This document shows, piece after piece, positions 4,055-5,671 of a stretch of DNA of 8,443 nucleotides. The stretch lies in the IMG/VR virus record IMGVR_UViG_2663763282_000007; one strand, written 5' to 3'. Source of the stretch: a virus (Duplodnaviria > Heunggongvirae > Uroviricota > Caudoviricetes). The number at the start of each line of letters is the position of its first letter. Positions within the stretch are counted from its first letter, which is position 1. The translations under genes and the position numbers were made by a program. Under the pieces are notes generated by a model. That model did not search any database and was not told the DNA's origin. It saw only the letters and a program-made list of their open reading frames with translations.

Positions 4055-5612
4055 TCTTTCACATATTATCGCTGCGGCATTCAATGAGCCGCTGCTTCTG
4101 GAGCCCGCCTATGCGCGGGTTTTCTTTTGCGCGCTCGGGCGTGAGATGGGCGCAGCAAGCCTTTCGGTACCGCAACAGCAGGTACAGCTTGACGCTCCCG
4201 GGATGCTGGCTGAAACGGACGAGTACATGGCCGGAGGCAAACGACCTGCCCGTGTTTACCGGGTGGTGAACGGTATTGCTGTACTGCCGGTGACCGGCAC
4301 GCTGGTACACCGGCTGGGTGGCATGCGGCCATTTTCCGGAATGACTGGCTATGACGGCATTGTCGCCTGTCTTCAGCAGGCAATGGCGGACACTCAGGTA
4401 CGGGGCGTACTGCTGGACATTGACAGTTCTGGCGGGCAGGCCACCGGCGCGTTTGACTGCGCTGACATGATTTACCGTCTCCGGCAGCTGAAGCCTGTCT
4501 GGGCACTGTGCAATGACACGGCCTGTTCAGCCGCCATGTTACTGGCATCGGCCTGCTCCCGACGGCTGGTTACCCAGACATCCCGTATCGGCTCCATTGG
4601 GGTGATGATGGGCCATGTCAGCTATGCCGGTCATCTGGCACAGGCCGGTGTGGATATCACGCTGATTTACGCCGGATCGCACAAGGTGGATGGCAATCAG
4701 TTTGAATCCCTGCCAGCAAAGGTTCGCCAGGACATGCAGCAGCGCATTGATGCGGCGCGCCGGATGTTTGCTGAAAAAGTGGCGATGTATACCGGTTTAT
4801 CTGTGGATGCGGTTATGGGAACAGAGGCCGCCGTTTTTGAAGGTCAGTCCGGTATTGAGGCCGAACTGGCGGATGAATTAATCAATGCGTCGGACGCCAT
4901 CAGCGTGATGGCTGCGACGCTGAACACACACGATACAGGAGGCACTATGCCGCAATTAACTGCAACGGAGGCTGCCGCGCAGGAGAACCAGCGAGTGATG
5001 GGGATCCTGACGTGTCAGGAAGCGAAAGGACGTGAACAACTGGCCACGATGCTGGCAGGGCAACAGGGTATGAGCGTTGAGCAGGCCCGGGCGATTCTGG
5101 CCGTGGCGGCACCGCAACAATCTGGTGTATCTGCGCAGAGTGAAGCCGATCGCATTATGGCATGTGAAGAGGCGAAAGGACGTGAACAACTGGCGGCAAC
5201 GCTGGCGGCGATGCCGGAGATGACGGTGGAAAAAGCCCGTCCGATTCTGGCTGCTTCACCGCAGGCGAATGCCGGACCCTCACTTCGTGATCAGATTATG
5301 GCCCTGGATGAGGCAAAAGGGGCAGAGGCGCAGGCTGAAAAACTGGCGGCCTGTCCGGGGATGACCGTGGAGAATGCCCGGGCTGTACTGGCGGCAGCCT
5401 CAGGCAGGGCAGAACCGGTTTCTGNNNNNNNNNNNNNNNNNNNNNNNNNNNNNNNNNNNNNNNNNNNNNNNNNNNNNNNNNNNNNNNNNNNNNNNNNNNN
5501 NNNNNNNNNNNNNNNNNNNNNNNNNNNNNNNNNNNNNNNNNNNNNNNNNNNNNNNNNNNNNNNNNNNNNNNNNNNNNNNNNNNNACGTCAGCAGACGGTG
5601 ATGCGGACGTGA
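4044..5612 (+). CDS. C: Prohead protease / scaffold (lambda gpC-like, S49/SppA-type); 3' end undefined because of the N gap
   Basis: A GTG start at 4044 gives (M)RRNLSHIIAAAFNEPLLLEPAYARVFFCAL..., which matches the lambda gpC N-terminus (...LRNLPHIASMAFNEPLMLEPAYARVFFCAL). Conserved blocks follow: MTGYDGI, GAFDCADMI, KPVWAL.ND, SAA.LLASA.SRRLVTQT.R.GSIGVMM, ITLIYAGSHKVDGN, TEAAV. The ORF track reads through 160 N to a stop at 5610-5612; the true frame and stop after the gap are unknown (in-frame stops exist at 5596-5598, 5610-5612 and 5633-5635 in the three frames). Confidence 0.85.
   Translation: MRRNLSHIIAAAFNEPLLLEPAYARVFFCALGREMGAASLSVPQQQVQLDAPGMLAETDEYMAGGKRPARVYRVVNGIAVLPVTGTLVHRLGGMRPFSGMTGYDGIVACLQQAMADTQVRGVLLDIDSSGGQATGAFDCADMIYRLRQLKPVWALCNDTACSAAMLLASACSRRLVTQTSRIGSIGVMMGHVSYAGHLAQAGVDITLIYAGSHKVDGNQFESLPAKVRQDMQQRIDAARRMFAEKVAMYTGLSVDAVMGTEAAVFEGQSGIEAELADELINASDAISVMAATLNTHDTGGTMPQLTATEAAAQENQRVMGILTCQEAKGREQLATMLAGQQGMSVEQARAILAVAAPQQSGVSAQSEADRIMACEEAKGREQLAATLAAMPEMTVEKARPILAASPQANAGPSLRDQIMALDEAKGAEAQAEKLAACPGMTVENARAVLAAASGRAEPVSXXXXXXXXXXXXXXXXXXXXXXXXXXXXXXXXXXXXXXXXXXXXXXXXXXXXXXRQQTVMRT
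4947..5612 (+). CDS. Nu3: Scaffolding protein (lambda Nu3-like), nested in-frame within the 3' third of C; 3' end undefined
   Basis: An in-frame internal ATG at 4947 is preceded by AGGAGG (4937-4942). The product begins MPQLTATEAAAQENQRVMGIL, matching the region where lambda Nu3 starts inside C (…ENSRIMGILNCEEAHGRE…). The nested arrangement is assumed by analogy with lambda. Confidence 0.5.
   Translation: MPQLTATEAAAQENQRVMGILTCQEAKGREQLATMLAGQQGMSVEQARAILAVAAPQQSGVSAQSEADRIMACEEAKGREQLAATLAAMPEMTVEKARPILAASPQANAGPSLRDQIMALDEAKGAEAQAEKLAACPGMTVENARAVLAAASGRAEPVSXXXXXXXXXXXXXXXXXXXXXXXXXXXXXXXXXXXXXXXXXXXXXXXXXXXXXXRQQTVMRT
5013..5424 (+). repeat. Imperfect tandem direct repeat, about 150-bp period, 2.8 visible copies, within the C/Nu3 coding region; the last copy is truncated by the N gap
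   Basis: Copy starts are at about 5013, 5163 and 5307. A 23-nt exact match, gcgaaaggacgtgaacaactggc, occurs at 5022-5044 and 5172-5194. The encoded modules are CQEAKGREQLATMLAGQQGMSVEQARAILA..., CEEAKGREQLAATLAAMPEMTVEKARPILA... and DEAKGAEAQAEKLAACPGMTVENARAVLA.... Confidence 0.8.
5425..5584. other. Run of 160 N (assembly gap or masked sequence)
   Basis: Uninterrupted n characters from 5425 to 5584. The length is not a multiple of 3, so the reading frame across it is arbitrary. Confidence 0.99.
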
Positions 5613-5671
5613 AAATGCTCATGGCCATGCCATGAAGTCAGTGCTGACCATCAATATGAGGTTTTTACAAT

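Follow-up and report, generated by a model that had tools for sequence, protein, structure and literature searches.

A 160-nt N run in the protease/scaffold gene of a phage-21-type prophage record very probably stands in for 74 nt of ordinary coding sequence

The stretch of DNA analyzed here, referred to as the window (8,443 nt of IMG/VR virus record IMGVR_UViG_2663763282_000007), contains a single run of Ns. It occupies positions 5425-5584, is exactly 160 nt long, and is an artifact of the record lying over a known gene rather than a biological novelty. As an earlier note on this sequence had recognized, the run sits inside the prohead protease/scaffold gene (C/Nu3) and cuts into its 3' part. 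Our comparisons make it very probable that the Ns are a gap placeholder (a gap from assembly or scaffolding, or a mask to the same effect) that is 86 nt too long and that replaces one particular 74-mer. In relatives, the place of the Ns is taken by 74 nt that run from the second base of codon 461 through codon 485 of C. Judging from identical and related copies, the molecule behind this record almost certainly carries the same 74 nt.

The window represents a very common defective prophage of the phage 21 type that is found in Shigella flexneri and E. coli. We examined ten clean copies on independent contigs or chromosomes, complete S. flexneri genomes among them (L007, L020, L024-L027, and L029-L032). 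Their left flanks, compared over window positions 1-5424 or most thereof, are 99.96-100% identical to the window, and their right flanks, from 5585 onward, are 99.8-100% identical. All ten hold the same 74 nt at the position of the Ns, namely, CATCCACAACCGCCATGTTTGAACATTTCATGGCGAACCATTCACCGGCAGCGGTACAGGGTGGCGTGCCACAG. The flanks of the gap are thus colinear and nearly or fully identical with gap-free copies in which ordinary sequence is present. Two IMG/VR contigs are near-identical to the window, the first at 100% over 15-5424 and 5585-8383 and the second at 100% over 64-5424 and 99.97% over 5585-8443. Chromosomes and contigs from NCBI, several of them complete S. flexneri chromosomes, were collected by looking up the distinctive TerL variant of the window (described below). 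Seven N-free records with this variant match 1-5424 (or 75-5424) at 99.98-100% and 5585-8443 at 99.97%. An eleventh copy, CP024983.1 (L028), matches equally well and has the same 74-nt content, but has N runs of its own elsewhere. In each of these eight records with the TerL variant, the C gene is 1506 nt long (501 aa) and includes the same 74-mer. The correspondence extends to phage 21 itself and to a 99%-identical prophage of E. coli O121, in both of which 74 nt take the place of the 160 Ns, with both flanks aligning base for base to the edges of the gap.

The reading frame of C leads to the same length. In the window, the frame is broken by the 160 Ns; when these are replaced by the 74 nt of the relatives, an intact open reading frame of 501 aa results. 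Specifically, the G at 5424 together with the 74-mer encodes residues 461-485 of C (ASTTAMFEHFMANHSPAAVQGGVPQ), which are also residues 160-184 of the nested 200-aa scaffold of the Nu3 type. A length of 74 nt (2 mod 3) joins the 460 codons upstream to the phase that ends in KMLMAMP and the stop codon at 5633-5635, while a length of 160 nt (1 mod 3) puts that tail out of frame with the upstream codons. The open reading frame that a program had called at 4044-5612 (522 aa) runs across the Ns in an arbitrary phase. Since 160 is not divisible by 3, both this translation, with its X residues, and its stop at 5610-5612 are arbitrary, as the earlier note had pointed out. That note was also accurate in placing stops in all three frames between 5596 and 5635; they are found at 5599-5601, 5610-5612, and 5633-5635.

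With the 74 nt in place, the prohead protease/scaffold gene (C of lambda, gene 5 of phage 21) occupies 4044-5635 on the plus strand, an assignment based on translations, the reconstruction, and the annotations of relatives. The N-terminal two-thirds of its product contain an S49 (ClpP/SppA-type) peptidase domain (Pfam PF01343 Peptidase_S49, residues 147-292; E = 3.1e-33; 115 bits against a cutoff of 24.9), and the gene lies between those for the portal and for the decoration and major capsid proteins. Nested in frame within it is the scaffold gene (Nu3 of lambda, gene 6 of phage 21) at 4947-5635 on the plus strand, which is reconstructed as 200 aa and whose region matches PHROG families of head maturation proteases and scaffolds. 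Its putative internal start, recognizable as a sequence feature, consists of an ATG at 4947 with AGGAGG just upstream, and it is homologous to the annotated start and ribosome-binding site of phage 21 gene 6.

The 3' end of the gene is better defined than had been thought. According to the earlier note, the terminus of C/Nu3 could not be called and the junction with D was left undefined. However, the last 16 codons (TSADGDADVKMLMAMP, codons 486-501) and the true stop, a TGA at 5633-5635, were sequenced at 5585-5635 (plus strand), and they recur unchanged in relatives with an intact C gene of 1506 nt and 501 aa. Downstream, a fully sequenced spacer of 36 nt separates C from D (5636-5671), with a GAGG at 5658-5661; in the phage 21 record, the two genes are also 36 nt apart, and a ribosome-binding site is annotated. 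The head decoration gene (D of lambda, shp of phage 21) then follows at 5672-6019 on the plus strand (115 aa), as supported by its open reading frame, the annotations of relatives, and a Pfam HDPD match on an identical gene. Its ATG at 5672 confirms that the Ns end 87 nt before the start of D. Because the stop, the spacer, and the start of D all lie outside the gap, both the end of C/Nu3 and its junction with D can be read directly. The 9 nt that had been cited from lambda is correct as a figure (between the end of Nu3 at 5737 and the start of D at 5747), but it does not apply here, where the layout is that of phage 21 with its 36-nt spacer. The conclusion that the gap leaves no room for an extra gene nonetheless holds.

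These features follow phage 21 (GenBank M81255.1) closely. In that phage, the portal gene is followed by gene 5 with gene 6 nested inside it, shp, and the major capsid gene; gp5 is the protease, and the repeats annotated as the Tri1, Tri, and Tri3 boxes precede shp. The 1506-nt coding sequence, three repeat units spaced about 150 nt apart, the C-terminal tail, and the 36-nt spacer before shp are likewise the same. Identity is about 91% across the matching part of the window, with nucleotide divergence of about 8-12%. Where the two differ is that the copy in the window belongs to a defective prophage, frameshifted in the portal gene and in TerL, and has Ns where phage 21 has sequence. Shared with lambda (NC_001416: C at 4418-5737, nu3 at 5132-5737, D at 5747-6079) are the S49 protease, the in-frame nested scaffold with a common C terminus, and the placement of C/Nu3 between portal gene B and decoration gene D. 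However, lambda C has 439 aa as opposed to 501 aa here, and the spacer between Nu3 and D is 9 nt as opposed to 36 nt. The segment hidden by the gap aligns weakly to lambda, within an alignment of 39% identity.

An alternative is that the length of the N run is true. In that case, the 160 nt would include a real and unique insertion or duplication of 86 nt just after the third Tri repeat, which would throw the final 16 codons of C/Nu3 out of frame and add a further inactivating lesion, in the tail of the protease/scaffold, to a prophage that is already defective. Some collections do mask sequence with Ns in a length-preserving way, and a mask of that kind would set the source apart from every relative by 86 nt. 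The existing decay of the prophage (an extra T in the portal gene, a frameshift at the C terminus of TerL, and an apparently truncated Nu1 beside an insertion sequence) is compatible with one more lesion. So is the precedent of CP024983.1, another assembly of the prophage, whose N runs of 10, 987, and 395 nt (3652-3661, 5554-6540, and 15517-15911) hold its coordinates in register with gap-free L027, although the Ns of the window exceed by 86 nt the stretch whose place they take. One of the runs in CP024983.1 covers the insertion sequence upstream of the head operon. Against a true length of 160 nt stand the ten of ten clean copies with matching flanks that have 74 nt, with flanks that align base for base to the gap edges, and the outcome of our searches for other lengths. 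We consider this alternative very unlikely.

Those searches covered several collections. A pattern search with the pair of flanks matched 18 IMG/VR contigs and 2 species-representative genomes, and the spacing between the flanks was 74 nt in all 18 of the former, in both of the latter, and in phage 21. Between the same flanks, a distance of 145-175 nt did not occur in any of three large public collections (genome, viral, and metagenome contigs), and the record behind the window itself was not encountered there either. In addition, the reconstructed 315 nt served as the query for a length check in E. coli, for which a spread sample of 60 was taken from the 1,873 matching complete records. In 58 of these 60, the query aligned as one colinear 315-nt piece; one record spans 314 nt, and one has a partial match. 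The gap-free copy of the region, searched on both strands, gave no match in Rfam at E ≤ 1, and a scan for promoters and terminators returned no consensus match within the 74 nt. The same scan returned two consensus matches nearby, a promoter-like site in the spacer between C and D and a terminator-like site inside D/shp.

The gap directly follows an array of repeats, which raises the question of whether further copies are hidden in it, as had been suggested. The nested gene contains three units of about 100-110 nt that are 150-153 nt apart, and we mapped them by aligning the GenBank annotation of M81255.1 to the window (all on the plus strand). The first (Tri1 box, 5014-5117) corresponds to a direct repeat at 5008-5101. 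The second (Tri box, 5154-5264) corresponds to 5158-5251, is 73% identical to the first, and lies at a spacing of 150 nt. The third (Tri3 box, 5295-5408) has its seed at 5336-5350, 153 nt beyond that of the second, and ends 17 nt before the Ns. The direct repeats start at about 5008, 5158, and 5311, with seeds at 5033, 5183, and 5336. Translated, they are diverged units of about 50 aa (5008-5408) with the rough consensus I-M-x-C-x-E-A-K-G-R-E-Q-L-A-x-x-L-A-x-x-P-G-M-T-V-E-x-A-R-x-I-L-A-A. Tandem Repeats Finder reported no array on a gap-free relative because the copies are too diverged. The repeat unit is homologous to residues ~113-176 of lambda Nu3 (52-61% identity), but the three units here each align to one and the same stretch of that protein. 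In the phage 21 record, the Tri boxes are annotated with "function unknown."

The position of the Ns relative to this array had been described as beginning within the third copy, which is an approximation. In that copy, the conserved core ends at about 5404-5408, and the Ns begin about 17 nt past it, in the stretch that follows, at 5425. Tandem repeats are a classic source of assembly collapse, and a gap immediately after a three-copy array could therefore hide one or more extra Tri copies of about 150 nt each. Yet, one more copy would bring the hidden segment to about 224 nt (74 + 150), a length that neither equals the 160 nt of the record nor fits the frame, and no spacing of 210-240 nt between the flanks, the size with one extra copy, was found in viral contigs. 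Nor did the sample of 60 E. coli records contain length variation other than the single 314-nt span. Furthermore, in copies whose flanks match at 99.8-100%, three repeat units are present along with 74 nt of nonrepeat coding sequence. The 74-mer is not itself a copy of the repeat; it links the third Tri unit to the conserved C-terminal tail. Taken together, these observations leave hidden repeats as the least probable of the readings considered, with only the slightest chance of being correct.

Even with a hidden segment of 74 nt, its sequence could be that of a different allele. Among relatives, the 74-mer comes in at least seven alleles. The second commonest (CGTCC...TCACAG) differs at 12 of 74 positions, changes 5 of 25 residues, and is carried by prophages whose left flanks are 97.4-98.9% identical to that of the window, which lends some weight to the idea that it or another variant is present here. 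However, the CATCC...CCACAG allele is found in every copy whose flanks match at 99.8% or better, and we regard a different allele as very improbable. In a comparison of L003, L004, L013, L017, and L018 with the window, the 74-nt segment emerged as a local hotspot of variation between well-conserved flanks. The 12 differences in 74 nt in prophages with left flanks of 97-99% identity (L003, L004, and L013) suggest that mosaic exchange may have taken place at this spot.

Returning to the placeholder as the favored explanation, we infer that the gap would have arisen during short-read assembly or scaffolding. The window resembles a draft contig in that its left end lies close to the end of an IS3-family transposase open reading frame of complete genomes, and most occurrences of this prophage segment are on contigs of 5-10 kb. 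CP024983.1, as another public assembly of the prophage with N runs of its own, fits this picture. It shares with scaffold gaps and N masks of draft assemblies an N run between flanks that are colinear with complete genomes, on a contig bounded by an insertion sequence. One possible cause is an assembly bubble left between 74-mer alleles of prophages residing in the same cell. From the gap outward, however, the sequence is shared exactly with other prophage alleles for only 16-17 nt on the left side and 52-113 nt on the right, so that the edges of the gap lie off the clean branch points of an assembly graph. This speaks against a placeholder, as does the fact that the 74 nt are not a repeat.

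For the record itself, the consequences are a matter of annotation only. The phage 21 record M81255.1 already includes annotations for the gene, the nested scaffold, and the three repeats. The 522-aa open reading frame ending at 5612 should be discarded. In its place, a gap-interrupted C/Nu3 homolog of 501 aa ending at 5635 should be annotated, with a nested scaffold of 200 aa and with the 74-nt filler marked as derived from identical copies. A PCR product of about 350 bp had been expected with primers near 5350 and 5700. Because the N run is too long by 86 nt, the product is instead predicted to be about 265 bp.

The remainder of the window is a head operon of the lambdoid phage 21 type that has undergone decay. 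Along with the genes described above, it contains TerL (350-2260), a gpW-like gene (2261-2464), the portal gene (2461-4054), and the major capsid gene E (6077-7105). At 3444-3449, the portal gene has six Ts as opposed to five in intact relatives, which splits it into open reading frames at 2461-3516 and 3431-4054. The extra T is a genuine inactivating frameshift rather than a sequencing error, because it recurs in assemblies made independently of one another (L007, L020, and L024, the last being S. flexneri CP182556.1). At the upstream end, a Nu1-like open reading frame for the small terminase (55-378) has only 107 aa. In complete S. flexneri genomes, position 1 of the window corresponds to a site 27 nt short of the end of an IS3-family transposase open reading frame. 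The head operon appears to have been truncated by the insertion sequence, with the contig ending at that repeat.

Among complete E. coli relatives, the closest, FDAARGOS_943 (L003; 98.8% identity), has another insertion sequence, ISEc60 (IS4-like), at 8248-9438, between the head-tail joining gene and a tail gene; the window is without this insertion. It was ruled out as an element at the gap site, given that it lies about 2.3 kb downstream of the gap. In TerL, a 1-nt deletion at about 2186 with adjacent substitutions, relative to intact relatives, replaces the last ~24 residues and moves the stop to 2260. The C terminus of the lambda homolog gpA is listed as the part that contacts the portal (PMC3224144, Table 2). 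The altered TerL ending is common to L007, L020, and L024, and the variant is indexed in 2,068 blocks of a public collection.
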